Below are positions 1 through 31,772 of a stretch of DNA of 32,000 bases, piece after piece (the stretch's first letter is position 1; each line of letters starts with the position of its first letter). Position numbers and translations under genes: made by a program. Under the pieces are notes generated by a model. That model made no database searches, was not told the origin of the DNA, and saw only the letters and a list, made by a program, of their open reading frames with translations. This stretch comes from Desulfocapsa sulfexigens DSM 10523 (GTDB lineage Bacteria; Desulfobacterota; Desulfobulbia; Desulfobulbales; Desulfocapsaceae). The DNA is taken from positions 150,001 to 182,000 of the forward strand of contig NC_020304.1 of NCBI RefSeq assembly GCF_000341395.1, written 5' to 3'.

Positions 1-123
1 CCCGGCCCGTCTGTTTTTCTCAACGACAGTCACATCATAGCCGAGACCGGCAAGGATTATCCCCGAGCTTAAACCGCCGATACCTGATCCGACAATGACC
101 AGCTTTTCAGCGTCATGCTTCAC
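1..123 (-). CDS. FAD/NAD(P)-dependent oxidoreductase, CrtI/phytoene-desaturase-like (5' end only, runs off the window)
   Basis: Reverse-strand reading 123->1 gives V(GTG)KHDAEKLVIVGSGIGGLSSGIILAGLGYDVTVVEKNRRAG. This has the GxGxxG dinucleotide fold and a VxVxEKN strand-2 acidic residue, typical of CrtI and amine-oxidase flavoenzyme N-termini. A GAGGG Shine-Dalgarno lies about 5 nt upstream. An alternative GTG at 135 forms a GTGA overlap with the upstream stop. The ORF is absent from the track because it is truncated by the window edge. Confidence 0.6.
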   Translation of the reverse strand, partial: MKHDAEKLVIVGSGIGGLSSGIILAGLGYDVTVVEKNRRAG

Positions 124-131
124 TCCTGCCC

Positions 132-1166
132 TCACGGTTCACTTTTTTGATTCCGCCAGCAGGTGGGATCGGAGGCAAGATAATCGCCGGTAAGCTGATA
201 GGCTGCTCCACGGCAGCCGTAACACTCCTCGGCCTTATCGCAGTCCCTGCATTCACCCCTAATCATCTCCCGATAATTCTTGAGATTCTGAATAACTTCA
301 CTATTCTTCAAAATATGTGCAAGGCTGTTGTTGCGGATATTATCCAAGGGAATGGTCACCCCGACGCAGGGCATCACATCACCGGTTGCGGTCAGGAGGC
401 AGGACACCTGATGGCGCATACATTTATTCCCGACAAGGGGAGGCTGGGGCTCCCACTCACGACCATACGTTTCCTGGTCAATTGCAGACAGCTCTGCAAA
501 CAGATTTTTCAATTTTTCAGAATCAACGGTGAGCCAGCTATTTGTAATGGCATTTGCCTGGGGGGTGATCACCTCAAAATAAGGCTCCATTTTCTGGTCT
601 CGAATCCACTTCCACATCTCGACCAGTTCATCAAAGTTTGTCTGGCAAATCACCGTTGAAAGAGCAAGGAAGAGATCAGAAGAGGGGTACCCTGCAACTT
701 TCAGATTAGCAAAGGCAGTTTGAATAATATCATAGGCCCCTTCCCTTCCTGCCAGGCGATCCTGTACTTCCCGTTTCATGGAGTTCAGTTTTAATACCAC
801 CCGGACTTTCAGTTTTGCCAAAAGCTGTGCAAGCTCACCATCCACTCCGGTTCCATTGGTAAACATTTCAATTTGAAAACCATGGTCATCCAGAAATCTC
901 AGCATCTCAGGAAGATGTGGATAGATACTCGGCTCTCCACCCAGGATAATAATCTTTCTGGCCCCGAGCGCCTTGGCCTGAAGAAGCACATCCTTCAGCT
1001 CATCTTTTGTCAGTTCCCCTCTGCACTCCTTCTTCTCGGGCACATAACAGTATGAACAGCGAAAATTACAGATACGACTGAACTCTATTTCCATTGACAG
1101 GAGCCTGTCTTCGGCCACTGCGTTTTTTATTTCTTCTTCAGTAAATTCAAGATTATATAGCTGCAT
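132..1166 (-). CDS. Radical SAM protein with a C-terminal SPASM-like auxiliary Fe-S domain
   Basis: The CNFRCSYC motif (CxxxCxxC) is at residues about 33-40. A GGEP motif is present. The C-terminus carries CLLTATGDVMPC (Cx5Gx4C), then CRDCDKAEECYGC (Cx2Cx5Cx2C), then a later DPTC. ATG start at 1166. Confidence 0.9.
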   Translation of the reverse strand: MQLYNLEFTEEEIKNAVAEDRLLSMEIEFSRICNFRCSYCYVPEKKECRGELTKDELKDVLLQAKALGARKIIILGGEPSIYPHLPEMLRFLDDHGFQIEMFTNGTGVDGELAQLLAKLKVRVVLKLNSMKREVQDRLAGREGAYDIIQTAFANLKVAGYPSSDLFLALSTVICQTNFDELVEMWKWIRDQKMEPYFEVITPQANAITNSWLTVDSEKLKNLFAELSAIDQETYGREWEPQPPLVGNKCMRHQVSCLLTATGDVMPCVGVTIPLDNIRNNSLAHILKNSEVIQNLKNYREMIRGECRDCDKAEECYGCRGAAYQLTGDYLASDPTCWRNQKSEP

Positions 1167-1181
1167 ATCATTCTTTTATAT

Positions 1182-2678
1182 TTAATAATCATTTAGATCG
1201 GTAAAAGTATTCATCCGTTCCAGACGTTCTATTTCCCGTTTATAGCGCCCCTGCCACCCATATTTTCTCATCACCCGACGATAGTGCAGTTTCAAAATCG
1301 GCTTAAAGGCAAAGAGCCATATCCATGTCCAGAGCTTTCCCTGTTTTTTTACAGTGTTGGGTGGTTTCCACCAACCAAGCACAATCTGTCGCTGATACCA
1401 GAAGTGGTACTGTAACGCATCTGAGTCAAGAAAGTTAGTCCGAACATTAGCCCAAAGTCCATTATATTTTTTCAGATCTGTCCTATTCGTAACCAGGTCC
1501 AAAGACAAAAGATGCTCACGCATACCCGTTTTGGGATAGGGGGTAATAATCTGGCAATAGGCCGCGTCAGCTCCAATCTCCTTAAAAAACTGGTAATTTT
1601 CCGTAATGGATTCCACATCATCCTCGGGAAACCCAAAGATAAGTCCGCCAATCACCATCATTCCATATTTATGACAGTTATCAATGGCCTTCCTGGAAGC
1701 AGCGACGATATCACCCTTGCCCGCTGCACTGAGATTCTTTTTGGAACCATTTTCTATACCCAGAAAAACAGAGCAAAACCCCGCCGCAGCCATTTTCGCC
1801 ACCATATCTTCCCGCATTGCCATGGTGACACAGTCTGCCTGAACAAAGAACTTCAGCTTTTTATAGCCCCTGGCGATAATGGCATCACAAAGCTCAATTA
1901 CCCGTTTCGGGTTGAGTACCATATTGTCATCGGTGATAAAGATGGAACGTACCTTGCGATTAAAATAGATATCATCAATATCTTCGAGCACCCGGCTTAT
2001 GGGATAGATACGAAAACTTCGCCCGTACATATTTTTCATGCTGCAGAAGTTGCATGACCGGGTGCAGCCCCGGGACGTTTCCAGAGTTTCTATACTGGCA
2101 TTCATCAGATGATAGCCCCAGGTCAACCTGCGTTTATCACGGATGGGGAGCTTTATCGTTTTAAGGTCAAGATTTTCCGCCCGAGGGTTATGGATAAACT
2201 TTCCGTCACTCTCGTTGCGAAACGAAAGTCCGGGGATATCCGAAAACGTATCTTTTCCTGCAAGTCCATTTACCAGACGCCTGCATACCTCTTCCCCCTC
2301 ACCTCGTACGATATAATCGATCCATCGGGACTGGGGAGAATCAGCTATTTCCTCTGCCATCAAAGTCGCGTGATAGCCGCCGATAACAATCTGTATATCA
2401 GGATGCATATCCTTGATCAAATGGGCAATTTTAATGCAGGTATCGTACTGCCAGGCCATGGCCGACAGGCCGACCAGATCCGGTTTTATTTTACCTATAA
2501 TTTTAGTCAGATATTTTTTTACCGAACGCCGTTTCCGGATAAGGTCGACCAGAAAAACCTCATGTTCCGAATCAATATTACCGCCAATACTTGCAATACC
2601 AAGGTTTGGTATATGCACGGCTGCCTCATGGACAAGCACTGGGACCACATCGGGCATGGAAACCAGTAAAACCTTCAC
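1182..2678 (-). CDS. Cobalamin-binding-domain (class B) radical SAM protein
   Basis: N-terminal Rossmann-like B12-binding region (VKVLLVSMPD...DLVGLSAM...IVIGGYHAT) followed by ETSRGCTRSCNFC (CxxxCxxC). I prefer the GTG start at 2678: it has a GGAGGGAGG SD just upstream and a GTGA overlap with the PlsC-like stop. The track ORF instead starts at the TTG at 2696. Confidence 0.9.
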   Translation of the reverse strand: MKVLLVSMPDVVPVLVHEAAVHIPNLGIASIGGNIDSEHEVFLVDLIRKRRSVKKYLTKIIGKIKPDLVGLSAMAWQYDTCIKIAHLIKDMHPDIQIVIGGYHATLMAEEIADSPQSRWIDYIVRGEGEEVCRRLVNGLAGKDTFSDIPGLSFRNESDGKFIHNPRAENLDLKTIKLPIRDKRRLTWGYHLMNASIETLETSRGCTRSCNFCSMKNMYGRSFRIYPISRVLEDIDDIYFNRKVRSIFITDDNMVLNPKRVIELCDAIIARGYKKLKFFVQADCVTMAMREDMVAKMAAAGFCSVFLGIENGSKKNLSAAGKGDIVAASRKAIDNCHKYGMMVIGGLIFGFPEDDVESITENYQFFKEIGADAAYCQIITPYPKTGMREHLLSLDLVTNRTDLKKYNGLWANVRTNFLDSDALQYHFWYQRQIVLGWWKPPNTVKKQGKLWTWIWLFAFKPILKLHYRRVMRKYGWQGRYKREIERLERMNTFTDLNDY

Positions 2679-3469
2679 CGCCCTCCCTCCATGCAACTGC
2701 CATCGGATTCAAAAATCTGGCGAACCTTTTTCTCAAGGGCCGTGGCAGATATCCTTCCCGCATCCACTCCAGGATCGAGACAGCCAATACTCTTCATTCG
2801 TATGTGGTTATGCACCCTGGTATTAAAAAAAAACTTTCCCGGAGTAAACAGTTTATCACTATTACAGAGGCTCAACACATGAACAGGACATCTATACATA
2901 CGGGCTATCTTAAAGACGCCCCTATGAAAATCACCAAGATGAGAAGCCGTGTTTCTGGTTCCTTCAGGAAAGACGAAGAGATTGCCACCATTTTTAAAAT
3001 AACTTCCCATATTTTCCACCTGAGCTATCATCCTTTTTGCATGAGCGCCTTCTGTAGTTGCAGGAAGATAGCCGGAAACCTTGAGTAACCAGCCGAAAAC
3101 AGGTGCATGAAAAAATTTCGTCTTTACAATGGTCTTGTTTTGAGGCAACTGAGAAATCAGGAGAAGCGGATCAAGATAGGAGAGATGATTACAAACTATG
3201 ATGGCACCGTGAATTTCCCTTATTTTTCGATCAATCTCCCATATATGCCTCGGTACCAGGGTGCGGAGGAGCCAGAAGAATCCTTTAAAAAACAGATGAT
3301 CGAGATACTGAAAGGCCCGCTCCCTGTCTCTCGCGAAGAAAAAGACAGCCAGATAAAAAAAGGAGAAGAACAGCAGGAAGGCAAAGATAAAATAAAACCA
3401 GCAGACAAGGGTCACCACAACATCACTGATCCTGTCCATAAAGCTTCCCTGCAACTTATTCCCGGCCAT
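2675..3469 (-). CDS. 1-acyl-sn-glycerol-3-phosphate / lysophospholipid acyltransferase (PlsC/LPLAT family), membrane anchored
   Basis: NHLSYLD (HX4D catalytic block) and FPEGTRN (block III), with a hydrophobic N-terminal helix. The ATG at 3469 overlaps the KS stop by 14 nt. An alternative ATG at 3439 has an AGGGAAG SD. Confidence 0.85.
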   Translation of the reverse strand: MAGNKLQGSFMDRISDVVVTLVCWFYFIFAFLLFFSFFYLAVFFFARDRERAFQYLDHLFFKGFFWLLRTLVPRHIWEIDRKIREIHGAIIVCNHLSYLDPLLLISQLPQNKTIVKTKFFHAPVFGWLLKVSGYLPATTEGAHAKRMIAQVENMGSYFKNGGNLFVFPEGTRNTASHLGDFHRGVFKIARMYRCPVHVLSLCNSDKLFTPGKFFFNTRVHNHIRMKSIGCLDPGVDAGRISATALEKKVRQIFESDGSCMEGGR

Positions 3470-4694
3470 CTGTTACAAGCAGACAGGTGTTCACTCCACC
3501 AAAGGCAAAATTCTGAATGGCAGCGGTACGGGTTTCAGTCTCTGTTACTTCGCGAAGGTGCCGCAGCATTGCACAGCGTGGATCTACGTTTTCAAGATTC
3601 AGGGTTGGAGCCAGAAAGCCTTCCTCCATCATATACAGACTTAAAATGAGTTCAATAGCGCCGCAGGTTCCCATGGTATGGCCCATATAACTTTTCAGGC
3701 CAGCCACCCAGGGTTTGTCTCCGTACACTTCTGCAATAGCCTGTGATTCAATCACGTCACCCATCTTGGTTGCCGTGGCGTGGGCAGAAATAAAATCAAT
3801 ATCGGCAGGTTTTCTGCCTGCATCCTCTAGAGCCAGACTGAGCGTTGCCGTTATCCCGCCCAGATTGGGAAGAATAAGATCACCGCCATTATTGTTGCAG
3901 GCAAAACCAATCACCTCACCTAGTATCAGGGCTCCGCGAGCCCTGGCATGTTCATACTCTTCAAGGAGTACAGCAGCCCCGCCTTCTCCCACCACCAGAC
4001 CATCACGATTCACATCGAAGGGACGGGGAGTACATTCGGGGGTGTCATTATAGTCCACGGAACAGGCGAGAAGATTATCAAAAACTGCCACCGTTGTGGT
4101 GTCATACTCATCGGCACCTCCCGCGATCATTGCATCCTGCATCCCAAATTTCACCATTTCATAGGCAAAGCCAATGGACTGGCTCGATGTGGTACAGGCA
4201 GTGGATGAGGCCACCACACGTCCCGTAATTCCATACATCCTGGTGATATTTACAGCGGTGGTGTGCACCATGGATTTCAGGTAATCCACGGCACCGATGG
4301 AGGAAAACTTTGATTGATCGTCACTGAAAAAGGTCTTGTAGATATTGCGTTGCACCGTAGGACTGCCATGGGTTGAGCTGAAGGAGACCCCTAAACGACC
4401 GGAACGGATAAACTCCTGATCCAATCCGGATGCAGCCAGAACATCACCGGCGACCTTGCAGGCGTAATAGGCGACGGGCCCCATGGTTTTGGTATCCTTG
4501 CGTGCAAACCCAAAATCAATGGGATAATCAACGGTACCGAATACTTTCGAGTGGATACGCTCCGTGAGCAGACCATCATCCCGCAGGGCTTTAACCCCAG
4601 ACTTCCCCCGGCGCAGACTCTCTACAATGGCATCTTTTCCGTAGCCAATGGGGGTAATGGCAGAACAGGCGGTGATAACGACTCGTCTTGTCAT
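3456..4694 (-). CDS. Beta-ketoacyl-ACP synthase (KAS I/II fold), atypical active site
   Basis: Active-site Cys context SSTACTTSS, second His in ISAHATATKMGD, GHTMGTCG, and C-terminal FAFGGVNTC. The DAxH(M/F)T(A/S)P block that holds the first catalytic His is replaced by NGGDLILP, which contains no His. Confidence 0.9.
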   Translation of the reverse strand: MTRRVVITACSAITPIGYGKDAIVESLRRGKSGVKALRDDGLLTERIHSKVFGTVDYPIDFGFARKDTKTMGPVAYYACKVAGDVLAASGLDQEFIRSGRLGVSFSSTHGSPTVQRNIYKTFFSDDQSKFSSIGAVDYLKSMVHTTAVNITRMYGITGRVVASSTACTTSSQSIGFAYEMVKFGMQDAMIAGGADEYDTTTVAVFDNLLACSVDYNDTPECTPRPFDVNRDGLVVGEGGAAVLLEEYEHARARGALILGEVIGFACNNNGGDLILPNLGGITATLSLALEDAGRKPADIDFISAHATATKMGDVIESQAIAEVYGDKPWVAGLKSYMGHTMGTCGAIELILSLYMMEEGFLAPTLNLENVDPRCAMLRHLREVTETETRTAAIQNFAFGGVNTCLLVTDGRE

Positions 4695-4708: not shown

Positions 4709-4966
4709 TCAGCTACTGTGGGCAGTCTGGATGGTCTCGATGTAATCGAGGATATCACTGATGGTACGGATACTCATCGCCTGTTCCTTTTCTTTTCGTG
4801 ATATTTGATAACCGAGCATGTCTTCGATTTTCGCAAGCAATTCAATGGCATCAATACTATCAAAGCCGTGATCATCTCTAAGGTTATCGGTTAATCCCGG
4901 ATCCTCAAATTCAAATTCGTCTACTAAAATTGCTACGATTTTTCCCTGCAGTTCATCTCTTGTCAT
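4709..4966 (-). CDS. Acyl carrier protein
   Basis: 85 aa, acidic, with a GFDSIDAIEL phosphopantetheine-attachment Ser motif. It is the first gene of minus-strand block A. Confidence 0.9.
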   Translation of the reverse strand: MTRDELQGKIVAILVDEFEFEDPGLTDNLRDDHGFDSIDAIELLAKIEDMLGYQISRKEKEQAMSIRTISDILDYIETIQTAHSS

Positions 4967-5201: not shown

Positions 5202-6308
5202 ATGAATGCCACAAACATGCGTTCCAAGCCCAAGTTAATTGGGGACCTACTCGACATCATACACAATGCGGTCATTGTCATTAACTCTCAAAACAGAATC
5301 GTTTATGCAAACAGTCGTACTGCTGTGATGTTCAGGACATCGGTTGCCGAACTCCAGGATAATGACATCTTCCACCTCTTCATGCCGGATGATACCGAAA
5401 TAATGGTAAGCAATATCCTCCATATTACGCGAAATGAGCGTGAATTCGAGGGTGAAGCAATGCTGAAGCGCATGGACGGCAGTAGTTTTATGGGACTTAT
5501 CTCCGGGACCTCGTTCCAATGGGATGAAAATCAGGACGGAATAGCCTTCTCAATCCATGACATTACTGATATGAAAGCCATTGAGCGCTCTCTGAGACAT
5601 TCAGAGCGAATGGCCTTCCTTGGTAACCTGATAGATGACATCAGCCATCAGATCCGTAACCCTATCATGGTTATCGGAGGCTTTGCCAAACGCCTTGATG
5701 CACTAAATAATTCACCAAAGGAAACCAAAGCCATAATCAGTGAATCCAGACGCCTTGAGGACCTTCTTGATACTCTTAACAACTTTATGCATCTGCCAAG
5801 CCCGGACACAAAACGTGTCCCCATGGGTGATCTTATACACATTGCAGAAACATTCCTGCGCGACACCGTAGAGGCCTGCAGCTGTAACTGGTTCAGTGAG
5901 TACGCTGACAACATAGGTGAAGAGGAACTGCTGCTCGACCTAAGTCTCATCACCAAAGCCCTGGAAGCTGTCATACTAAACGGTTGTGAATCCTACGATT
6001 GCAGCACAGCCGCGAACAGGGATATTATTTTCAAAATCCATCACTCCAATAATCCCACCCACCCCTATGATATTGAAATCACAGACCGTGGTGCCGGGAT
6101 ATCCAGCACCGTTTTTCCGCATATTTTTGACCATTTTTATTCAAACAAAACCAAACATATTGGAATGGGACTGACCTTCGCCCAGAGAATTGTCGAGGAA
6201 CAGCGAGGCACACTGAGCATAACTTCCAAGGTCAGCAAAGGCAGCACCGTCAGCTTCCATTTGGTAAAAGAGAGACGACGCCCCATCCGTACCACAAAGT
6301 TTCACTAA
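5202..6308 (+). CDS. PAS-domain sensor histidine kinase (cytoplasmic, no TM segment seen)
   Basis: N-terminal PAS-like region (NAVIVINSQNRIVYAN...), H-box DDISHQIRNP, and ATPase G-boxes DRGAGIS and GMGLTFAQRIV. It is convergent with the LpxL-like gene, with 17 nt between the stops. Confidence 0.9.
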   Translation: MNATNMRSKPKLIGDLLDIIHNAVIVINSQNRIVYANSRTAVMFRTSVAELQDNDIFHLFMPDDTEIMVSNILHITRNEREFEGEAMLKRMDGSSFMGLISGTSFQWDENQDGIAFSIHDITDMKAIERSLRHSERMAFLGNLIDDISHQIRNPIMVIGGFAKRLDALNNSPKETKAIISESRRLEDLLDTLNNFMHLPSPDTKRVPMGDLIHIAETFLRDTVEACSCNWFSEYADNIGEEELLLDLSLITKALEAVILNGCESYDCSTAANRDIIFKIHHSNNPTHPYDIEITDRGAGISSTVFPHIFDHFYSNKTKHIGMGLTFAQRIVEEQRGTLSITSKVSKGSTVSFHLVKERRRPIRTTKFH

Positions 6309-6325: not shown

Positions 6326-7195
6326 CTACAGGATAAAACGATCAAAGTGATACCACTCCAGGGGGTGAGCACGAAGTTGCTCTTCAAGTAAATCAGCGTA
6401 CTGCTGTGCAGCCTTCTGGATAGTTCTTTTCCGTTCCGATCTCTGCTCACAATGAATATAGAGAGGATCGGCAAGACTGAACTGATAGCTGTTTTTTCCG
6501 GTACGAAAACTGTAAAAGCAAAAGATAGGGGCACCGGATACCATGGCAAAAATGTAGGGAGCTTCAGGAACTCTGGCCCTGCCGCCGAGGAAATCAACCT
6601 CCATACTGCGCTGATCTCCGCGCCAGACGATATCCCCGGTCATGGAGATAAGACCGCCATCCTGCAGCAAACGAATCCCCTCAACGGCATCAAAGGGGGA
6701 GCCGCCGTCCCGTGGAGCCCCGATTATCCGCACTCCGGAATCCTGGAGCTGCTCCTTCTGGAGTCCTTCCACTCCTTCCTTTTCCTTCACTCCCATATAG
6801 AGAAGAAGCTTCAACGTCTCTTCCTGCTGCTGCAGGAGCTGGGCTGCTATCTCCCAGTTCCCAAGGTGAGACATCAGCAGAATGGCACCTTTTTCACCTA
6901 CCACGGCCTCCAGCTTTTCCCAGCCATCCGATGTAAAGGTCGTTTTCTGACCATGGTTTGCCAGGAAACGATCATAATGAATGGTAGTGAAATTCTGATA
7001 CTGGCGAAAGGTGCAGAGGCTGTGAAAGAAACCACTTTTCCGGGGATAGAGAAGACCATAGAACCTACGGCTCTCCTTTGCGTTTTCTGAGAAAAGAAAA
7101 TACCCCGCAGCGATGGATCTGGATACGACGACAAAGAGCCAGGAACCACAGATTCTGGTCATTGTCTCAAGAAATCCGTACCAGAAACCCTTCAT
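6326..7195 (-). CDS. Lipid A-type late acyltransferase family protein (LpxL/HtrB/MsbB-like)
   Basis: The SHLGNWE (HX4E) signature of the lauroyl/myristoyl acyltransferase family, with an N-terminal hydrophobic helix. The ATG at 7195 forms an ATGA overlap with the GT2 stop. Confidence 0.8.
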   Translation of the reverse strand: MKGFWYGFLETMTRICGSWLFVVVSRSIAAGYFLFSENAKESRRFYGLLYPRKSGFFHSLCTFRQYQNFTTIHYDRFLANHGQKTTFTSDGWEKLEAVVGEKGAILLMSHLGNWEIAAQLLQQQEETLKLLLYMGVKEKEGVEGLQKEQLQDSGVRIIGAPRDGGSPFDAVEGIRLLQDGGLISMTGDIVWRGDQRSMEVDFLGGRARVPEAPYIFAMVSGAPIFCFYSFRTGKNSYQFSLADPLYIHCEQRSERKRTIQKAAQQYADLLEEQLRAHPLEWYHFDRFIL

Positions 7196-7908
7196 TTTTG
7201 TTTCCAGGAGGCAGAAAAAATCCGTTTACAGATCAACCTGCTAAATGTGGCACTGTTCCGTAAAAAATCTTTCCAGGGGTGAAAATGGGAAATGCGCTCC
7301 TTCCCTTTCTGGTAAATAACCTGGACCGGAGTTTCAACAACCGGGATCCCCATGCGATGAGCAGTGACCAGTACTTCAACCTCAAACTGGAAACGTCTGG
7401 CACGGACATCCAGTTCAAGAATTTCAGGGAGCGGGTAGAGCCTGAATCCTGACTGGGAGTCACTTATTCGCGGCCCACCGGACAACCACACCCAGAAGTT
7501 TGAAAACCCCCTCCCGAACCGAGATGTCCACGGAACATTTATCCCATCCATTCCCTGCCTCGATCCGACCACAATGGGACGGTCTTCCCCCTTTACCACA
7601 GCAAGGAGATTTTCTATATCTTCAGCTTTGTGCTGTCCGTCTGCGTCGAGTGTGACCGCCCAGTCAAAAGAGTCCTTAGCCGAGAAAAAGCCTGTTCGTA
7701 ATGCCGCGCCCTTTCCCATGTTCCGCGGGTGGGTCAGCACCGTAATCCCCTTTATGGAAGAGAGCGTTTCAGCAGTCTGATCCGTTGATCCATCATCTAC
7801 AACAATGACCGGGTAGCCAAGAGCCGCAGTCTCCCGCACCACATCACTGATACGCGTCCCGTGGTTATAGGCCGGAATGACGATGACAACTGCATCACGA
7901 TTCAACAC
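7192..7908 (-). CDS. Family 2 glycosyltransferase (DPM1/ArnC-like)
   Basis: VVIVIPAYNHG, VIVVDDGSTDQT and LDADGQH (DxD) motifs. I start it at the GTG at 7908 (AGAGAGG SD 6 nt upstream), or the TTG at 7905. The longer track ORF (to 8052) would overlap the DegV-fusion gene by 150 nt. Confidence 0.85.
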   Translation of the reverse strand: MLNRDAVVIVIPAYNHGTRISDVVRETAALGYPVIVVDDGSTDQTAETLSSIKGITVLTHPRNMGKGAALRTGFFSAKDSFDWAVTLDADGQHKAEDIENLLAVVKGEDRPIVVGSRQGMDGINVPWTSRFGRGFSNFWVWLSGGPRISDSQSGFRLYPLPEILELDVRARRFQFEVEVLVTAHRMGIPVVETPVQVIYQKGKERISHFHPWKDFLRNSATFSRLICKRIFSASWKQK

Positions 7909-9638
7909 CCGGCACCTCTCTTTGTTGCAAAGGCGATGCTCCAGGTGCCAGGACCCATATGAACGCCTGAAGTGAGAGATAGGGGAACGAGCAGAATCTC
8001 CGCCTTTGGGACCTCCTCCCGTATCTGCGGCTCCACGACACTTTCCAGCCATTCCCTGTTATCCGTATACTGCAGCAGCACCAGCAGAGCAGATTCTTTA
8101 TGATTCGATGCGCCAAGCCGCTTCTTTGCAAAATCCAACTGGGCCTCAGCATTTCGAACCACACCAACCTTGGCAACCCCTTCAAAACCAGGAGTGATGA
8201 CAGGTTTCATCTGCAGAAGATCCCCAAAAAATCCCTTTGCTCTGGAAACACGCCCACCGGACACCAGATATTTCAGTTCATGGATAAAAACGTACTCTTC
8301 CGCTTTCCTGGTGAGTTTTTCTGCATAGTCCACCACTGCATCGACACCAGCACCTCCCTCTGCAAAGCGGGCCGTCAGAAGAGCGATTACGGCTAATCGT
8401 CCAGAAGCGGCACCGCTATCAAGAACCATAAACCGATCATCTGAATCGTTATTTTTCTTCCACTCTCTGGCAGTGACAAAATTTCCGGTGAAGGCAGAAC
8501 CGGTACTGAGATAGAGCACTTTTTCATACTGCTGGATCGCTGCCCGATAGTGAAGATGCCGTTCATGGCTTGATGCCTGGGCAGTGCTGACACGTGCTCC
8601 CCCCCTCATCAGAGTATAGAGTTGTTCAGGGAAGAAAAGGCTCTCCGGCAGGGCCTGATCTCCGGCAACTATATAACTGTCGAGAAGGATAATTCCGTGA
8701 CCACGGGCAAGTGTCAAAGGAATGGAGCCTGCTGCATCGCTCATAATCCTGATACGGTTTGCAACAAAGGATTTCTGCCTACCCGCCGTAATCATAGGGT
8801 CCATGGCCTCATCCGACCAGTTCACAAGATCTCCCAGCAGGGAGAGATTACCGCGTAATGTCTCCGGATCCCGGGTGTGGATATGCAGTTTCACTCCGGC
8901 GCCATCCTGGACAACCACGGCACTGTTTCCCAGATTTGCTATCTTTTCTGTAAGATCATCCCCTGTTCCGCTGGTTGCAAGTAATGCCTCAACGCAATAC
9001 TCACCGCTTGCCTGGGGATAATAAGAAGCGTCGATGGAAAGGGTATCACCAAAGAGTTCAACCACCGGGCTTAATTCTGTTTTCTGTCCGCTCAATTCCT
9101 GAAAAAATCCATCAAAAAAGAGAAACATCCCCAAAGCCCCGGAATCAACAACTCCCGCTTCGGAAAGCTCCGCCAGTTGCTCTCTTGTACCCAACACCGT
9201 ACCTTGCAGCTGTGTTCTGATTTTCAACCAGTCACAATCAGTTGGGTTTTCCTCATCGAGCAACAGACAGAGGCTGTCAAAAACAGCAAGCATGGTGCCG
9301 GGTCTGGGATCCGCTATGGCCTGCCAGGCCTTCTCCCTGCCTCTTTTTGCCTGCTGGACCAACCCGGCACCATTGGGATTGAGAAATTCACAAAAGAATG
9401 CCACTGCAATATTACCCGAGTTACCACGGCCACTGGAGGCAAGACGAGCAACAGCAGCTGCCATATCTGTAGCACATTCCCGCAGAGGAGAAAGACTGAG
9501 ACGCAGATTTGCCCCGGTATCACCGTCTGCCACGGGAAAGACATTAATACGGTCAAGAAGCTCGGCCCATACGGCCAGATTTTCATATCCGGCTATGGCG
9601 GCTGCAACACTGTTAGAGGCAAATATAGAATCTTTCAT
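7902..9638 (-). CDS. DhaL/Dak2 (FakA N-terminal-like) domain fused to a DegV (FakB-like) fatty-acid-binding domain
   Basis: The N-terminus has INVFPVADGDTGANL, the Dak2/DhaL nucleotide-binding signature seen at FakA/YloV N-termini. The C-terminal roughly 285 aa begin IRIMSDAAGSIPLTLARGHGIILLDSYIVAGDQ, which matches the DegV pattern. It is a single uninterrupted 578-aa ORF. Confidence 0.8.
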   Translation of the reverse strand: MKDSIFASNSVAAAIAGYENLAVWAELLDRINVFPVADGDTGANLRLSLSPLRECATDMAAAVARLASSGRGNSGNIAVAFFCEFLNPNGAGLVQQAKRGREKAWQAIADPRPGTMLAVFDSLCLLLDEENPTDCDWLKIRTQLQGTVLGTREQLAELSEAGVVDSGALGMFLFFDGFFQELSGQKTELSPVVELFGDTLSIDASYYPQASGEYCVEALLATSGTGDDLTEKIANLGNSAVVVQDGAGVKLHIHTRDPETLRGNLSLLGDLVNWSDEAMDPMITAGRQKSFVANRIRIMSDAAGSIPLTLARGHGIILLDSYIVAGDQALPESLFFPEQLYTLMRGGARVSTAQASSHERHLHYRAAIQQYEKVLYLSTGSAFTGNFVTAREWKKNNDSDDRFMVLDSGAASGRLAVIALLTARFAEGGAGVDAVVDYAEKLTRKAEEYVFIHELKYLVSGGRVSRAKGFFGDLLQMKPVITPGFEGVAKVGVVRNAEAQLDFAKKRLGASNHKESALLVLLQYTDNREWLESVVEPQIREEVPKAEILLVPLSLTSGVHMGPGTWSIAFATKRGAGC

Positions 9639-9871: not shown

Positions 9872-11242
9872 CTACAGAGATGTGAAAAGTTTACAGATTG
9901 CCTCCCTGTCATATTTACCGTTTGGCATAACAGGAATTGCAGAGACAACCCTGATACGTTTTGGCATGGCGGCGGGTTCCAGACCACCGGTCAGGACTTT
10001 TTTCAGATTATCGAGGTCAAGCCCTTCACCACGAACAAGCGCTGCAATCAGGTTTCCCCGCCCCCCTTTATCAGCCAGGGAAACGACCACACATTCCTGT
10101 ACAGCGGCTTGACTTTGTATAAAATCACGAACCTCGTCAATATCTACCCGGACACCACCTACCTTGGTTATAGCGTCCGCTCTGCCATGCAAAGAGAAGC
10201 CGGCTGCTCCCTCCTGCTGTACCCGATCTCCAGAAAGAAAAAAGCCATCTCCATTTACTGGTAGATCAGGAGAGAGAAAAGGGGACTGAACATAGAGGCG
10301 CTCTTCCGCTATCCGCCAGATGACCGGCTCAAGCGGAGTAAAAAATTTCTGACCAACGGACCTGTCACGACTGGCAAGTCCTCCTGTTTCCGTGGAGCCA
10401 TAGACTTCCACCACTCCGATATCATTGGATGCTGAAAACTCGAGGCTGTCTGTTTCCTCAAGCATTCCGGCAGAAGAAAAGGCCACTCTGAGAGATGTTC
10501 CAACACTCCTTCCCCTTAAAACACGGTAGTGGGCAGGAACACTGACCAGAACGGTTGCCGAGTTCTGCTCCACAGCTTCAGTAATTTCCGCGGGGAAAGA
10601 GGGCGTTTCAGCAAGAACGGCAGCGGAAGAAACAAGAGGGATTACAATGGAAAACAAAAGACCGTAAATATGATAGGGGCTGACAGTTGACAGGATAATA
10701 TCCTGATTAGTAATCTGGTATCTGGAGGCCATAAACCAGGCTTCACCAAAGATATTGCCTGCTGTTTTTGACCAGATTTTCGGGCTTCCGGTGGAACCAC
10801 CCGTAAATATCCGGAGGAGCTCTGCATCTTCTGAAATGTTTTTAACAGGAAGTGAAACAGTGCCTCCCTTTCTTTCGGAGGAAATACACTGTATATCAGG
10901 TAAAAACTCCCGTTCCACATCGACTACCGCGCTGGTAAAGCCGGTAACTTGACGCATCTGTTCCAGAGCACTTTCTGAAAAACTATGGGGCAGAACCAGT
11001 ATTTTTCCGCTTGCCATTGCTGCAAGGAGGGCAGCGGCAATCACAGATCTTTCTTCTGCAGCAAGGCAGATGGGGACCTCACTTCCCATCTCAACAAAGG
11101 CAGCGTACAAACGGCCAGCCATGGTATAAACATCTTCCCGACTGTCTTTTTGGTACAAAAAAGGCTGCTGCGGATCAACGGGAGCCTGTAACAGTTTTTC
11201 CAGCAAGCCTTCAATGTCAGCCCCGCTATACAGGCTCTTCAT
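9872..11242 (-). CDS. Adenylate-forming enzyme (acyl/aryl-CoA or acyl-ACP ligase, ANL superfamily)
   Basis: TGGSTGSPK (A3), YGSTETGG (A5), GRADAITKVGGVRV (A8) and PNGKYDR (A10) motifs. I prefer the ATG at 11242, 1 nt after the upstream stop. The track ORF extends to 11308 inside the upstream gene. Confidence 0.85.
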   Translation of the reverse strand: MKSLYSGADIEGLLEKLLQAPVDPQQPFLYQKDSREDVYTMAGRLYAAFVEMGSEVPICLAAEERSVIAAALLAAMASGKILVLPHSFSESALEQMRQVTGFTSAVVDVEREFLPDIQCISSERKGGTVSLPVKNISEDAELLRIFTGGSTGSPKIWSKTAGNIFGEAWFMASRYQITNQDIILSTVSPYHIYGLLFSIVIPLVSSAAVLAETPSFPAEITEAVEQNSATVLVSVPAHYRVLRGRSVGTSLRVAFSSAGMLEETDSLEFSASNDIGVVEVYGSTETGGLASRDRSVGQKFFTPLEPVIWRIAEERLYVQSPFLSPDLPVNGDGFFLSGDRVQQEGAAGFSLHGRADAITKVGGVRVDIDEVRDFIQSQAAVQECVVVSLADKGGRGNLIAALVRGEGLDLDNLKKVLTGGLEPAAMPKRIRVVSAIPVMPNGKYDREAICKLFTSL

Positions 11243-11243
11243 A

Positions 11244-21311: not shown

Positions 21312-21578
21312 ATGGATGAGCTGACAAACGACCTGAAAAAGAAATTAATCGAAGTCCTGAACCTCACAGATATAACGCCTGAAGAAATCGATGAAAATGA
21401 GCAGCTTGTGGGCGGTGATTTAGGGATCGACTCCATTGATGTCCTTGAAATGGTAGTTATGGTTGAAAAAGAATATGGGGTAGTCATCAACAACAAGGAT
21501 ATTGGAGAGAAGGTCTTTTCCACCCTCGCAGCACTCACCGATTACATTCGTGAGAATTCTCCCACGTTAGCTTCCTGA
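21312..21578 (+). CDS. Acyl carrier protein
   Basis: 88 aa from the ATG at 21312 (MDELTNDLKK...), with an LGIDSIDVLEM attachment-Ser motif. The 47 codons the track adds upstream are not ACP-like. Confidence 0.9.
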   Translation: MDELTNDLKKKLIEVLNLTDITPEEIDENEQLVGGDLGIDSIDVLEMVVMVEKEYGVVINNKDIGEKVFSTLAALTDYIRENSPTLAS

Positions 21579-23726: not shown

Positions 23727-25066
23727 ACGTCCTGCTCATCTCACCCAATACCCTCACCGTTCCCTATCCGGTATATCCCATTGGCCTTGATTATGTGGCC
23801 GGTTCCTTATCAACCAGGCATCAGGTTCAGATTGCAGATCTCAATATCCTGGGACATGATGCGCTTGGGCAAATGATAGGCGATTTTTCTCCGGATATTA
23901 TAGGATTATCAATCCGTAACATTGACAACACCGAATCAGGCAATCCACTTTTTTTTATCAGCGAGCACAAAAAGCTTGTGGATTGGCTGCGAACCCAAAG
24001 TGACGCCCCCATTGTCGGTGGCGGCGCTGGGTTCACCATCCTTCCCCGTGAAATCTTCGACGCCCTTGAACTTGATTACGGCATTATAGGAGAGGGGGAA
24101 CGCCTGGGAGAACTGCTTGAGGCACTTGAAAACAAGGGGCCACTCTCCAACATTCCTGGCCTGCTCACGAGCTCACATCCCGCTATTCCTGCCGCGCCCT
24201 GGGGGGGAATCCTGCAAAGACAACCAGCACGGAATGCCCATTCACAGTTCTATCTCGATTATGGCGGAATGCTTAACCTGCAGACAAAACGGGGCTGTTC
24301 TTTCCGCTGCATCTACTGCCCCTACCCCCATATTGAAGGAAAAAAACATCGTCTTGTTGATCCCGAAACTGTTGCCCATATGGCCCTTTCACTTCAGGAA
24401 AATGGCGCAAAATACATTTTCATCACCGACTCCGCCTTCAATTCAGATGTCAGCCACAGCCTCAGTGTAGCGGAGTCCCTTAAACGCAATGGCCTTTCAA
24501 TCCCATGGGGGGGATTTTTTGCCCCCATTAAACTCCCGGATGATTATTTCACCCGGATGAAAGAGTGCGGCCTGAAACATGTCGAATTCGGCACGGAATC
24601 CCTCTCTCAAACAATGCTTAAGACCTACCGCAAACCCTTCACCCCCAAAGACGTTATCAGTGCCCATAATCAGGCCGTTGCTGCCGGACTCCACGCAGCC
24701 CATTATTTTCTGCTTGGTGGCCCAGGGGAGACCGTGACAACGGTGGACGAAACACTGAATTGTATAGAACATCTAAAAAAAACGGTACTCTTCTTTTTCA
24801 CCGGCATCAGGATCTACCCTCATACCAGACTCTACGACATTGCTCTTGAGGAGGGGAAAATCAGCAAAAACACCAGTCTCCTGGAACCCTTCTATTATGA
24901 AAGTAATGCCATCAGTCATGGGGAAATAGAAAAACAGGTCTCAGAGCGCGGCAAAGAACGGATCAACTGGATCGTTGGATCCGGAGGAAAAAAGTCAGCC
25001 GAAACAGTGAGCAAGATGCATAAACGTGGGTTCACCGGGCCTCTCTGGGAGTTTTTGATCCGTTGA
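23723..25066 (+). CDS. Cobalamin-binding-domain (class B) radical SAM protein
   Basis: B12-type N-terminus (MNVLLISPN...DIIGLSIRN...PIVGGGAGFT), then QTKRGCSFRCIYC (CxxxCxxC). It forms an ATGA overlap with the KS/CLF stop. Confidence 0.9.
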   Translation: MNVLLISPNTLTVPYPVYPIGLDYVAGSLSTRHQVQIADLNILGHDALGQMIGDFSPDIIGLSIRNIDNTESGNPLFFISEHKKLVDWLRTQSDAPIVGGGAGFTILPREIFDALELDYGIIGEGERLGELLEALENKGPLSNIPGLLTSSHPAIPAAPWGGILQRQPARNAHSQFYLDYGGMLNLQTKRGCSFRCIYCPYPHIEGKKHRLVDPETVAHMALSLQENGAKYIFITDSAFNSDVSHSLSVAESLKRNGLSIPWGGFFAPIKLPDDYFTRMKECGLKHVEFGTESLSQTMLKTYRKPFTPKDVISAHNQAVAAGLHAAHYFLLGGPGETVTTVDETLNCIEHLKKTVLFFFTGIRIYPHTRLYDIALEEGKISKNTSLLEPFYYESNAISHGEIEKQVSERGKERINWIVGSGGKKSAETVSKMHKRGFTGPLWEFLIR

Positions 25067-25176: not shown

Positions 25177-25530
25177 ATGTGGTATTCGTATATTTCGATA
25201 GGACATGATGGAGAGAATGCAGTGCTTGCCCGGGTGACTACGGATGCTGCGTCGCCCTGGTTTGCAGGGCATTTTCCAGAAGACCCTATTTTACCGGGCA
25301 TTGCCCAGATAAATATGGTAACTGAAACCATTGCAAGGGTTTTAAAGAAAAATCTATCGCTACAAAGTGTTGCCCGTATTAAATTTAAAAAGCTTGTCCG
25401 GCCCGGCGATATCCTTGATATCCACGCCATGGCAGGAAAAAAAGAAAACCACTATTCTTTCAGTATCACCAGCATGGAAGAAGATGTCTGCTCCGGCAGA
25501 CTGGTGCTGGCCCCAAAAAAGGAGCAATAA
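25177..25530 (+). CDS. Hotdog-fold 3-hydroxyacyl-ACP dehydratase (FabZ/ApeI-like)
   Basis: WFAGHFPEDPILPGIAQINM, the FabZ-type HFPxxPxxPG active-site block. 117 aa. Confidence 0.85.
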   Translation: MWYSYISIGHDGENAVLARVTTDAASPWFAGHFPEDPILPGIAQINMVTETIARVLKKNLSLQSVARIKFKKLVRPGDILDIHAMAGKKENHYSFSITSMEEDVCSGRLVLAPKKEQ

Positions 25531-25536
25531 AGAAAC

Positions 25537-25803
25537 ATGACAACCGATACACATCAGGCAATCACCCGTATTGCTGAAATAATCATCAATGAACTGAAGC
25601 TTGAAGATGTTACCCCTGAAACCTTTGATGCCGACCTTGATCTTGTGGATGAGATCGGGATTGACTCCATGGATCTTGCCACCATCGCCCTGGTCCTCCG
25701 TGATGAATATGGGATCAGAATCGATGAAGATGACTACCCGAAACTGACCACCGTGCGCATTATTGCTGAGTACATCACTACAAAACTGGCAGAAAAAGAG
25801 TAA
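25537..25803 (+). CDS. Acyl carrier protein
   Basis: 88 aa with an IGIDSMDLATIAL attachment-Ser motif. AAGGAG SD about 12 nt upstream. Confidence 0.9.
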   Translation: MTTDTHQAITRIAEIIINELKLEDVTPETFDADLDLVDEIGIDSMDLATIALVLRDEYGIRIDEDDYPKLTTVRIIAEYITTKLAEKE

Positions 25804-25820: not shown

Positions 25821-26888
25821 ATGGAAAACGCAAAGGACATAACGGAGTATAAATTTTCCGATATTATCGCATCCCCCTCTATCAAAGAGCGCTTTGAAAA
25901 GGTACGCAAATATTTTTTTCTCCGTGAATCCACCTACGACATGAGCAATCGCTGCAATCTCCGTTGCGAAGGCTGTTATTATTATGCCGGAGAGACCGAG
26001 AAACAGTTCGCCGAAGAGAATCTCAACCCGGCCGACTGGCAGCAGCTCATGGAGGCCGAGAAAGAACGTGGCATTACCTTTGTGGTGCTCGCCGGAGCCG
26101 AGCCATCCTACGTCCCCGAACTCTGTAAAACATGTTATGACACTATTCCCCTGGGCTGCATTGCCAGCAATGGTCTGATGCCCCTGGCCAAAGAAATCGA
26201 TTATCGCATCCATATTTCTGTCTGGGGAAATGACAAAACCAGCCTTGAAATCAGAAAGGCCAAGAATATGCTGGTCCGGCAGATGGAAAATTACCAGGGA
26301 GACTCAAGGGCTATCTGGGTTTACACCTTTACCCCCGTCAATATTGACCAGGCCCGGGAAGTGACGGAAACACTGGCTGCAAACAATCATCAGATTACCT
26401 TCAACATGTTTTCTGCCCCCACTGACTACAATGGGCATCTTCGCCACACCCCGCAAACGCTGGCCCATACCCGTGCTGTCATGAGTGAGCTTTTGGCCGA
26501 ATTTCCGGAAACTGTTGTATTCTCCCCTTATAATATCGTGGCCCATACCCATGAACAGGGACTCCATTCCCTCTTTTCCTGCTCTTACCCGCGCATGAAC
26601 CCATCAACCGCCATCGGGCTTGGGAGGTCGTTCCGTCAGTACCGTACCGACCTGCAGTGGGATCGAGCTGCTGCATGCTGCGTGCCGGACACGGACTGTG
26701 ATGATTGCCGCCACTATGCTGCTGGAAGTGCCGTGGTTACAGCCAGGATGTATCGCCATGCAACTACCCCGCAGCATTTTTCCGCCTGGCTCGACTATGT
26801 GGATACCTATCTTGCAGTGTGGGTGAAAGGCTACGATAAAGGCGAAAACCTTTGTAAAGAAATGATTGAACCTCCAGAACAGAGTTGA
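25821..26888 (+). CDS. Radical SAM protein (no B12 domain) with a C-terminal CC-x5-C-x2-C cysteine cluster
   Basis: SNRCNLRCEGCYY (CxxxCxxC) near residue 43, LAGAEPS (GGEP-like), and C-terminal AACCVPDTDCDDC. It is a clear paralog of the next gene. Confidence 0.85.
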   Translation: MENAKDITEYKFSDIIASPSIKERFEKVRKYFFLRESTYDMSNRCNLRCEGCYYYAGETEKQFAEENLNPADWQQLMEAEKERGITFVVLAGAEPSYVPELCKTCYDTIPLGCIASNGLMPLAKEIDYRIHISVWGNDKTSLEIRKAKNMLVRQMENYQGDSRAIWVYTFTPVNIDQAREVTETLAANNHQITFNMFSAPTDYNGHLRHTPQTLAHTRAVMSELLAEFPETVVFSPYNIVAHTHEQGLHSLFSCSYPRMNPSTAIGLGRSFRQYRTDLQWDRAAACCVPDTDCDDCRHYAAGSAVVTARMYRHATTPQHFSAWLDYVDTYLAVWVKGYDKGENLCKEMIEPPEQS

Positions 26889-26893
26889 AAAAT

Positions 26894-27892
26894 ATGAAAA
26901 CAGTCAGTTCCCTCCTCGATCCTCAATGGTACGAGCGCTATAAAAAAATATCCAGACTCAATATCCGCAGCTCCATCTACGATGTAACGGATCGCTGCAA
27001 TCTTCGCTGTAAAGGCTGCTTCTTCTTTTCGTCCGGTGAGCACGAACGTGCCGCAGAAGAAAAGGATATAGACAAATGGCATGACTTTGTGGAAAAGGAG
27101 ATGGATCGCGGCGTAAATCTAGCCATCCTTATCGGTGGTGAGCCCACACTCTGCATGGACAGAATTGAAGCATTTTACAAACGACTGCCCACCTTTTGTG
27201 CAACCAACGGACTCATCAAGGTTCCCCGTGATCGGTTCCCTGATATGATGGTTGGCCTCTCCCTCTGGGGTGATGCTGAGGACGAAATTGCCCTTCGCGG
27301 TCAGGACACCTTCAAAATTACCAGTGCCAACTATGGAGGTGATCCCCATGCCTACTATCTCTACACCATCACCCCGAAACAGCTGGGGAAAACCGGAAAG
27401 ATAATTCAGAAGGTTCAGGATATCGGACTGAAGGTTCATATGCAGTTGCTTTCCAACGATGAGGATGTCAATGGATTTTCATGGAAACCTGAAGAACTGC
27501 TGGACATCCGCCAGGAGATGGATGCCATGCTTGATGCTTACCCCAATACGGTGGTCTCATCAAAATATTACCATGAAGTTATCACCACCGGAAAGATGCT
27601 GGGCCGAACATTTGGCTGGTCGGAATGTCCGTCGGTAACCATTTTACGTGACAATCGGGATCCGCAACCCAAGCGGCTCACAAACTTTATCCGCTATGCA
27701 TCGGATCTTAAAACAGTCCACCGCTGCTGCACTTCTGAAACCCGTGACTGCTCCACCTGTAAAGATGGTGCGGCCCATATGAGCTGGGTAATGGTCAATA
27801 AACGTGCCCACATCAAAACAACGAAGGATCTGCAGAATTGGATTGAAGTGTACGAGATGTTTGCAAAATTATACCAGTTTATTCCCTGGTAG
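26894..27892 (+). CDS. Radical SAM protein (no B12 domain) with a C-terminal CC-x6-C-x2-C cysteine cluster
   Basis: TDRCNLRCKGCFF, IGGEPT, and C-terminal RCCTSETRDCSTC. I prefer the ATG at 26894. The track uses the TTG at 26885, which overlaps the previous stop. Confidence 0.85.
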   Translation: MKTVSSLLDPQWYERYKKISRLNIRSSIYDVTDRCNLRCKGCFFFSSGEHERAAEEKDIDKWHDFVEKEMDRGVNLAILIGGEPTLCMDRIEAFYKRLPTFCATNGLIKVPRDRFPDMMVGLSLWGDAEDEIALRGQDTFKITSANYGGDPHAYYLYTITPKQLGKTGKIIQKVQDIGLKVHMQLLSNDEDVNGFSWKPEELLDIRQEMDAMLDAYPNTVVSSKYYHEVITTGKMLGRTFGWSECPSVTILRDNRDPQPKRLTNFIRYASDLKTVHRCCTSETRDCSTCKDGAAHMSWVMVNKRAHIKTTKDLQNWIEVYEMFAKLYQFIPW

Positions 27893-27908: not shown

Positions 27909-29165
27909 ATGGGAAACAAAACCCCGGTCATCATTGGCTACGATGCCATTTCCGCACTCGGCAACGATCTTGAGCTGCAGTGGCAGGATGCCCTGGCTGG
28001 AAAAAGCGGTATCGGCCCTCTCTCCCGCTTCCCCCTGAAAGATGATTTTCCCGTTCGCATCGCTGGGCAGGTTCCTGATTTTGAGGATACGGACAAGAAG
28101 TACCCCTTTCTCACAGCCAGACATCAGGCTAGCTGGAGTTCCCCGGTTTTTAAATACGGAATGCTCTCCGTTGCCAGAGCGCTCGAATCTTCCGGTCTTG
28201 AAATAACCCCGGAACTTGCCCCACGGGTAGCTGTTACCTACAGCTCAGCGGTGGGTGGTCTCGATGCCGTCTTACATGCGGACAGACGACTCCAGGCTGA
28301 AAACAAACTCCCCCATCCCTACGCAAATCCCAACTCCTGTATCAATATGATTGGCGGTAAAATCGCCATCCTGACCGGAGCCCAGGGACCCATTGTAACC
28401 CCGGTCACCGCCTGTGCCACCGGCCTCACTTCCATGCTCACAGGAGCTATGTTCCTGGCCCAGGGCCGGGCGGACGTTGCCATCTGCGGGGCCGTTGATT
28501 TTGCTCTTGTTGAGCCCATTGTCGCAGGCTTTTACACCATGAACGGTGTCTACATCCCAAAGGAAGGCAATGAAGATGAAGCACCGGAACGTGCCAGCCG
28601 TCCCTTTTCCCGCAACCGGCGCGGGTTTATTATCTCAGAGGGTGCTGGAGCTGTGATTCTGGCCACCCCTGAATTCGCCAGAAATCATGGCCTGGGGTTC
28701 AGCATTGAGCTCAGCGGATGGGGAATGACCTCGGATGCCCACCATTTTGTAGCGCCTAACTTTGCAACCGTCAGGCAGTGCATGCAGAATGCCATGGATG
28801 ATGCCGGTATCAGTCCTGCTGAGATAGCGGTAATTAACGCCCATGCCGCATCAACAAAGGTTGGTGACAAGGTGGAATATGATGCCATCACAGCACTCTT
28901 TGGTAAAAACACACCTCCGGTGACTGCCAACAAATCACTCATCGGCCATCCCATGGGGGCATCGAGCGTTATAGAGTCCATTTTCAGCTTTCAGGGTATG
29001 CGTGATGGCGTACTTCCGCCCACTATTAACTACCTGCCAGACCCCGAGATTGTTATTGACTGTGTCGCAAACGAAAAACGAAAACTTGAACAGGAGTTTG
29101 TTCTGAAAAACTCTTTCGGCTTTGGCGGCTGTAACAGTTGTGCCATATTTAAACGGATACACTAA
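27909..29165 (+). CDS. Beta-ketoacyl-ACP synthase (KAS II-like, full Cys-His-His triad)
   Basis: VTACATGLTS (Cys), SDAHHFVAP (His), NAHAASTKVGD (His), GHPMGASS and SFGFGGCNSC. Confidence 0.9.
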   Translation: MGNKTPVIIGYDAISALGNDLELQWQDALAGKSGIGPLSRFPLKDDFPVRIAGQVPDFEDTDKKYPFLTARHQASWSSPVFKYGMLSVARALESSGLEITPELAPRVAVTYSSAVGGLDAVLHADRRLQAENKLPHPYANPNSCINMIGGKIAILTGAQGPIVTPVTACATGLTSMLTGAMFLAQGRADVAICGAVDFALVEPIVAGFYTMNGVYIPKEGNEDEAPERASRPFSRNRRGFIISEGAGAVILATPEFARNHGLGFSIELSGWGMTSDAHHFVAPNFATVRQCMQNAMDDAGISPAEIAVINAHAASTKVGDKVEYDAITALFGKNTPPVTANKSLIGHPMGASSVIESIFSFQGMRDGVLPPTINYLPDPEIVIDCVANEKRKLEQEFVLKNSFGFGGCNSCAIFKRIH

Positions 29166-29176: not shown

Positions 29177-30442
29177 ATGAGAGCACCACTTAACAGACGG
29201 GTTTTTGTAGCCGGATATGCGGCGGCAACCCCACTCGGAAATACCTTTGAGAAGACCTGGGCCGCTGCAATACAGGGAAAGGCAGCTTTCCGCCGTGTAA
29301 CACGGTGCGAAACCGAAAGCCGCTCCAACGTGGTTGGTGAAATCCCGGACTGGGATCCATCACTTCTCCCCTATGTGAACCGTAAAGAAGCCTCTATCTG
29401 GAACGCAGATTACATTTTCCTCACCATGGAGATGTGCAGGCAGGCCCTGGAAAATGCCGGTCTTGAAATGACTGAGGAGACCGGTCCAAGAACGGCATGC
29501 ATGATAGGTTCTGCACTCAACGGCACCGATTCCTACCGGATTGCCATGGATAACTATGTCAACCGTGGCCCGTTCAAGGTAAGCCCCTATCTCCTTCCAA
29601 ACGTATGCGCCAATCTGCCAGCCGGAAAAGCAGGAATGCTGCTCAATTTCACCGGCCCTATCTTCTCTCCACAGGGCGCCTGCGCCTCGGGCAACCACGC
29701 AATCGCCATCGGCTCGAGAATGATACGGGATGGTGATTGTGACTTTGTCCTCGCCGGTGGAGTCGAAACCTGCATAATCCCCGAAATCATCCAGGGATTC
29801 TCCAATATGCTTGCCACCATTAAAGTAGGCCATAAAGATCGTGCCTACGATGATCCGACTCAGGCCTCACGCCCCTTCAGTTTGGATCGCAAGGGATTTG
29901 TCCTCTCCGAGGGCGCCGGGGTACTTCTTCTTGCTGCAGAAGACAAAATTGAATCACTTGGACTTAGCAAAAAAGCTGAAGTTGCAGGGGTCGGCTGGAC
30001 CTCAGATGCGAAACACTTCACCCGGCCAAACCGGGAAACAATCGTCCGGGCAATCCACGACGCCATTTACGATGCCGAAATCAGTCCACAGGATATCGGC
30101 AGCATCAACGCCCACGGCACATCCACTCCGACCGGCGATGCCACTGAGGTTGAGTGCATGCGTGAGGTGTTCGGTAAAGAAATCAGTAAAATTCCGGTTA
30201 CAGCCAACAAATCACAGGTTGGACACAGTCTGGGGGCATCGGCTGCCATTGAGGCAGCACTTTCTATTGAAGCGATGAGCCAATCCATACTCCTGCCCAC
30301 GGTCAATCATATTCCCGATCCGGCCTTTGCAGATATTGATGTCGTTCCGAGTCAAACCCGTAAGCACTCCTACGAACATATACTTTCCAACTCATTCGGC
30401 TTTGGTGGAACCAATTGCTGTATAGTCTTTAAAGGAATCTGA
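29177..30442 (+). CDS. Beta-ketoacyl-ACP synthase (KAS I/II-like, full Cys-His-His triad)
   Basis: QGACASGNHA (Cys), SDAKHFTRP (His), NAHGTSTPTGD (His), GHSLGASAA and SFGFGGTNCC. Confidence 0.9.
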   Translation: MRAPLNRRVFVAGYAAATPLGNTFEKTWAAAIQGKAAFRRVTRCETESRSNVVGEIPDWDPSLLPYVNRKEASIWNADYIFLTMEMCRQALENAGLEMTEETGPRTACMIGSALNGTDSYRIAMDNYVNRGPFKVSPYLLPNVCANLPAGKAGMLLNFTGPIFSPQGACASGNHAIAIGSRMIRDGDCDFVLAGGVETCIIPEIIQGFSNMLATIKVGHKDRAYDDPTQASRPFSLDRKGFVLSEGAGVLLLAAEDKIESLGLSKKAEVAGVGWTSDAKHFTRPNRETIVRAIHDAIYDAEISPQDIGSINAHGTSTPTGDATEVECMREVFGKEISKIPVTANKSQVGHSLGASAAIEAALSIEAMSQSILLPTVNHIPDPAFADIDVVPSQTRKHSYEHILSNSFGFGGTNCCIVFKGI

Positions 30443-30447
30443 GTACC

Positions 30448-30930
30448 ATGCGACCAAAGCCATTTATCCCCGAGCTTCTCCCTCAGCACCCCAATCATGT
30501 AAAAGATAGGAACAGTGGTCTGATCTGGCACAAAAGCGAAATGCGTACCCTCTATGTGGATACTGACAGGTCCCAGGTTGTTTACCATGCCAACTATCTG
30601 CGATATTTTGAATTTGGCCGGGCAGAACTTATGCGGGGGGCCAACTATCCCTACAAGAAGATCGAAGAAAGTGGCTACGTCTATCCCATCATCAAGACTG
30701 AACTCAACTATTTCACCCCGCTCTTCTATGACGATCTCATGTATATCCACACCCGGCCTTCCAGCATCGAACTGGTTAAACTGCAGTTTGACTATCTGAT
30801 CACCCGGGCGTCAGACGGTGAGATTATCTGTACCGGTTTCACCAAGCATTGCGCAATCAACAGTGACGGAATTCCGGTCAAGATCGATGAGAAAACAATC
30901 AAACTCTGGGAAAGTTTTCCAACAGAATAA
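30448..30930 (+). CDS. 4HBT/YbgC-type hotdog acyl thioesterase
   Basis: YVDTDRSQVVYHANYLRYFEFGRAELMR, the 4HBT-class Asp and HxN..Y..YFE pattern. The true start may be the internal ATG at 30541. Confidence 0.8.
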   Translation: MRPKPFIPELLPQHPNHVKDRNSGLIWHKSEMRTLYVDTDRSQVVYHANYLRYFEFGRAELMRGANYPYKKIEESGYVYPIIKTELNYFTPLFYDDLMYIHTRPSSIELVKLQFDYLITRASDGEIICTGFTKHCAINSDGIPVKIDEKTIKLWESFPTE

Positions 30931-31772
30931 TGACAAGCCGTCAAGCTGTTCACATTCCCGTTCATCCCTGGTTCAAAGATCATCATTTTAATGGACAGAC
31001 AATTTTACCGGCGGTTGAGAGCATGCTTCTCCTTGCTGAAGTTGCTAAGAAAATACAACCTGACATTCAGATATGTACGATGACAGAGGCACATTTTTCC
31101 AAATTTCTGCCCATCCCCGCAAACGCAACGGAGTTATCAGTCCTGGTGGAGATTGATGCAGGTGAAGAGGTACTTCGCCTCAAGCTGCTCAGTAAAATGC
31201 AACTCAAAAAAATCAGCAGAATTAAAGAGCATGCCGAGCTATGCTTTCCTCTAAAAGAACCTACCATAGAGACTGTTACGCAAAACAGTGCAACGGACAG
31301 CCATATTGAAATAGGAGCCGATAGAATCTATAGAGAACTTGTTCCCTTCGGTCCAAGTTACCGCAGCCTTACAGGGACATTGCAGATATGCGGCAATACC
31401 GCCTGTGGTACCCTCCAGGCCCCAACACTTACACACCAGCATGTGATGGAAAAGGATATAGGATCTCCTTTTCCACTTGATGGTGCCATGCACGCCGCCT
31501 GCGTACTGGGACAATGCCTTGCAGATTTTGTCCCTTTCCCCGTCGGCTTTGCCACACGCTGCATTCACAGCCCAACACGGGCGGGTCAGCAGTACAGCAC
31601 CACAGTACTTGCCCGGTCAGTAACAAAAGATGAACTGCTCTTTGATTTATCTATTTTTGATACAAAGGGAAATATCTGCGAAACGATCAGAGGATTGCGG
31701 ATGCGCGATGTGAGCCGAGGGACAATCAGGTCTCCCCTGGATTTACCCAGGCAGAAAGTTTCTCAACCATAA
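30930..31772 (+). CDS. Stand-alone PKS-type double-hotdog dehydratase
   Basis: HPWFKDHHFNGQTILPAV matches HxxxGxxxxP exactly. LDGAMHAAC supplies the DxxxH/Q second-half motif. The 280-aa size fits a double hotdog. It forms a TAATG overlap with the thioesterase stop. Confidence 0.75.
   Translation: MTSRQAVHIPVHPWFKDHHFNGQTILPAVESMLLLAEVAKKIQPDIQICTMTEAHFSKFLPIPANATELSVLVEIDAGEEVLRLKLLSKMQLKKISRIKEHAELCFPLKEPTIETVTQNSATDSHIEIGADRIYRELVPFGPSYRSLTGTLQICGNTACGTLQAPTLTHQHVMEKDIGSPFPLDGAMHAACVLGQCLADFVPFPVGFATRCIHSPTRAGQQYSTTVLARSVTKDELLFDLSIFDTKGNICETIRGLRMRDVSRGTIRSPLDLPRQKVSQP

Follow-up and report, generated by a model that had tools for sequence, protein, structure and literature searches.

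Aryl polyene-type genes joined to five conserved radical-SAM enzymes in a candidate lipid-remodelling cluster of Desulfocapsa sulfexigens

The stretch of DNA analysed here (the window, 32,000 nucleotides of Desulfocapsa sulfexigens DSM 10523) holds three ACPs, four KS genes with five KS-type domains, one ketoreductase, three dehydratases and one thioesterase, together with one ANL ligase, PlsC-like and LpxL-like acyltransferases, a GT2, a LolA, a lipoprotein and seven radical SAM (rSAM) genes, all of which carry CX3CX2C (Table 1). Everything that an earlier sequence-only reading had listed was located where it had been placed, using ORFs, translations, Pfam and NCBIfam, and the KS, ACP, ketoreductase, dehydratase, ligase, acyltransferase and seven rSAM assignments held up in the ORF and profile searches. 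So did its report that ER, FabD and PPTase are missing: no window protein matched these domains in Pfam or NCBIfam. An RND/MMPL exporter is likewise absent from the window but present in related loci. Three kinds of gene had not been listed: a Dak2+FakA_M+DegV fusion, two sensor kinases and a partial small membrane protein.

Table 1. Features of the window, with strand and the matches that identify them
Feature	Positions	Strand	Evidence
CrtI/CrtD-like flavin amine-oxidase (PDH-like), N-terminus	1-120	-	Rossmann-domain matches
SPASM rSAM	132-1166	-	Pfam Radical_SAM 4e-26, SPASM 1e-6
B12rSAM_a, cobalamin-type rSAM, core	1182-2696	-	B12-binding 4e-18, Radical_SAM 3e-16
PlsC-type lysophospholipid acyltransferase, ApeD-like	2675-3469	-	Pfam Acyltransferase 1.5e-21
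KS1, ApeR-like ketosynthase	3456-4694	-	Cys-His-His intact
ACP1, ApeF-like	4709-4966	-	PP-binding; best match ApeF, 26% identity
PAS histidine kinase	5202-6308	+	Pfam
LpxL-family acyltransferase	6326-7195	-	Lip_A_acyltrans 3.6e-14
GT2 glycosyltransferase	7192-8052	-	Glycos_transf_2 1.2e-22
Dak2 + FakA_M + DegV/FakB fusion	7902-9638	-	DegV 8e-39, FakA-like_M 7e-11, Dak2 1e-9
ANL adenylating enzyme, ApeH-like acyl-ACP synthetase	9872-11308	-	AMP-binding match
B12rSAM_b, cobalamin-type rSAM, core	11244-12506	-	B12-binding 1.8e-7, Radical_SAM 2e-5
Lipoprotein	12524-13189	-	Signal peptide, lipobox-like FSSC
LolA-like periplasmic lipid carrier (ApeL / flexirubin LolA2-like)	13186-13779	-	Pfam LolA 2.4e-11
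3-ketoacyl-ACP reductase, FabG-type SDR, ApeQ/FlxB-like	13773-14510	-	43% identity to ApeQ
ApeP-like hotdog dehydratase	14534-15091 (probable start gives 14534-14971)	-	FabZ 8e-9
DUF4070-domain rSAM	15701-17245	+	Radical_SAM 4e-19, DUF4070 2e-15
Hybrid sensor kinase, dCache-PAS-HisKA-HATPase-receiver	17584-20940	+	Pfam
ACP2, ApeE-like	21171-21578 (likely start 21312)	+	PP-binding; 41% identity to ApeE
KS-CLF fusion	21591-23726	+	Pfam ketoacyl-synt + Ketoacyl-synt_2
TIGR04072-family cobalamin rSAM, core	23723-25066	+	B12-binding Pfam 1.8e-14
ApeI-like hotdog dehydratase	25177-25530	+	Pfam ApeI-like 41.7 bits, cutoff 28.5
ACP3	25537-25803	+	PP-binding
CC1 rSAM, core	25821-26888	+	Radical_SAM 4e-6, under Pfam cutoff
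CC2 rSAM, core	26885-27892	+	CCTSETRDCSTC motif
KS3, FabF-like ketosynthase	27909-29165	+	Triad intact
KS4, FabF-like ketosynthase	29177-30442	+	Triad intact
Hotdog thioesterase, ApeK/YbgC-like	30448-30930	+	4HBT_2 9e-12; 31% identity to ApeK
Double-hotdog PKS-type dehydratase (PS-DH)	30930-31772	+	PS-DH 1e-10, PKS_DH_N 8e-7
Small membrane protein, ~120 aa, C-terminal part	31756-32000	-	Cut at window edge

ACP2 (67.3 bits against PRK09184, cutoff 70) is present in 63 of 64 loci, and ACP3 is very conserved (77% median identity; 64/71 loci). KS1 and ApeR are reciprocal best matches (40% identity, E 7e-100), with 399.5 bits for KS1 against PRK09116 (cutoff 470). In the KS-CLF fusion, identity to ApeO is 35-42% over the N-terminal half and identity to ApeC 29% over residues 432-562; the best PDB match is 9s5h_B, an anammox FabF2 (4e-60). 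The C-terminal half lacks the Cys and second His of the triad; the protein reads as a predicted-active, ApeO/amxFabF2-like KS fused at its C-terminal end to an ApeC-like chain-length factor. KS3 (50/56 loci), whose nearest PDB entries are canonical FabFs, scores 336 bits against FabF TIGR03150, and KS4 (45/55 loci) 365 bits, where the cutoff is 493.75. Cys-His-His is kept in all four stand-alone or N-terminal KS domains.

The ketoreductase passes the FabG model NF004200 (281.6 bits, cutoff 273) and scores 282.8 bits against FlxB (cutoff 340). Two dehydratases have reciprocal best matches in the aryl polyene (APE) set: one, 145 aa from its probable start, with ApeP (30% identity, E 1e-9; best PDB match 6qsr_B, which is ApeP, 1.4e-4), the other with ApeI (PDB 3esi and 6qsr_A, ApeI), found in 67 of 74 loci. 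The PS-DH dehydratase (42/52 loci) has no counterpart among the Ape proteins of E. coli CFT073 apeA-R. The thioesterase exceeds TIGR00051 (83.9 bits, cutoff 68.7), and the ANL ligase, a reciprocal best match of ApeH (27% identity, 419 aa), is limited to 19 of 48 evaluable loci.

How might such a chain be anchored and exported? The PlsC-type acyltransferase and ApeD are reciprocal best matches (23% identity, E 8e-15), and the two halves of ApeJ are represented by separate genes, its acyltransferase half by the LpxL-family protein (23% identity over 307 aa, E 1e-17) and its GT half by the GT2 (36% identity, E 1e-37). Because the GT2 ORF overlaps the preceding gene, its real start probably lies downstream of 7899. 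That preceding gene (134.9 bits against TIGR00762, cutoff 99.7; kept in 21 of the 25 loci that could be evaluated) encodes a predicted single-chain fatty-acid-kinase-like protein that joins the N-terminal and middle domains of FakA to a DegV/FakB fatty-acid-binding domain, which points to acyl phosphate as a possible intermediate on the way to the anchor lipid. The LolA-like carrier scores 91.9 bits against LolA2_flexi (cutoff 125), and a profile of its family finds ApeL at E 7e-13. The lipoprotein occupies the place of ApeN in APE clusters and is syntenic in 35 of 55 loci. It had been labelled DUF3261-type, and here the sequence-only reading is not borne out: we detected no DUF3261 match, nor any Pfam match even at E<=10 or any NCBIfam match. 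Nor did its family profile (57 homologues) match ApeN (E ~1, hhalign probability 2%). The small membrane protein shows 39% identity in tblastn to a 23-ORF family adjoining the cluster in other loci, and its gene is called in L084 (10664-11026, minus strand).

Five of the seven rSAM enzymes form the core: B12rSAM_a, B12rSAM_b, the TIGR04072 rSAM, CC1 and CC2, and the cluster's three most conserved proteins fall among them. B12rSAM_a resembles BchE, HpnR and HpnJ, scoring far under those NCBIfam cutoffs; it has at least 487 metagenomic relatives and is linked to PlsC in 57/59 loci, KS1 in 40/42 and ACP1 in 38/39. B12rSAM_b is very conserved, at 79% median identity. Homologues of the TIGR04072 rSAM (396.8 bits, cutoff 360), which anchored our synteny search, form 667 clusters at 50% identity (E<=1e-30), and species genomes hold over 589 relatives. 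CC1 and CC2 are paralogues (26% identity, E 7e-41), with tails of the form CC-x(5-6)-C-x2-C, CCVPDTDCDDC in CC1. Homologues of CC1 make up 2081 clusters, the best 120 of these at least 74% identical; it occurs in 58 of 65 loci, and the only structures similar to its AF2 model (pLDDT 76) are generic SPASM/twitch rSAMs (TM 0.4-0.5). Of all the cluster's proteins, CC2 is conserved best (80% median identity; 57/64 loci).

The proposal of a seven-rSAM cluster thus stands for these five but not for the other two. The SPASM rSAM is a frequent accessory outside the core: it lies directly downstream of B12rSAM_a in 29 of the 59 loci that could be evaluated, and is missing from the third of the arrangements described below. 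The DUF4070 rSAM, with only a weak B12-binding match (E 0.027), is a sporadic accessory, lying with a sensor kinase in an insertion specific to D. sulfexigens between the divergent operons; elsewhere the hotdog gene directly adjoins ACP2, and L058 (70%) and L105 (80%) carry orthologues in different places. The flavoenzyme gene is truncated by the window's left edge; its full 495-aa protein, in L083, matches Amino_oxidase (1.4e-21) and is CrtD/CrtI-like under NCBIfam cutoffs. Beyond the window, the flavoenzyme is followed by a 182-aa PEMT/ICMT-like methyltransferase.

Both sensor kinases are lineage-specific insertions outside the conserved cluster. Related loci, near-identical strains excepted, have no PAS histidine kinase between LpxL and ACP1, and among 80 genome loci none has an orthologue of the hybrid kinase at the same position.

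Could the neighbourhood be fortuitous, as the sequence-only reading had allowed? The three operons remain linked, in three different arrangements, in Desulfobulbales, Desulfobacterales, Syntrophales, Spirochaetota and Allochromatium, and because gene order recurs in many loci of several phyla, the grouping is not chance. Synteny strongly upholds the co-conservation of rSAM, KS, ACP and dehydratase genes. This is a genuine gene cluster, conserved among many anaerobic bacteria.

Clusters of this type have been on record since 2009, when they were noted in Desulfotalea (Rattray 2009, PMC2649909), in agreement with the sequence-only reading, and we found no lipid product assigned to them in the literature searchable here. 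antiSMASH labels such clusters "ladderane" in non-anammox taxa. Anammox Cluster I ("ladderane") is only distantly similar to the window (22-32% identity). The nearest window match of its B12-rSAM is B12rSAM_b (28-30% identity, E 1e-41 to 1e-46), and the Cluster I enzyme does not correspond to the window's TIGR04072 rSAM.

Most likely, we infer, the cluster would build an APE-type polyunsaturated acyl chain, which radical chemistry would remodel, putatively by methylation, cyclisation or cross-linking, before the remodelled chain is attached to an envelope lipid. The APE-style architecture that had been proposed is borne out by direct comparison with E. coli CFT073 apeA-R, where 13 of the 18 Ape proteins have a best-match counterpart in the window (23-43% identity). 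The CFT073 cluster has no rSAM, as had been said of canonical APE clusters, whereas that of D. sulfexigens has seven. Judged by its predicted proteins, the cluster combines the machinery for aryl polyene pigments of the outer membrane with five conserved rSAMs.

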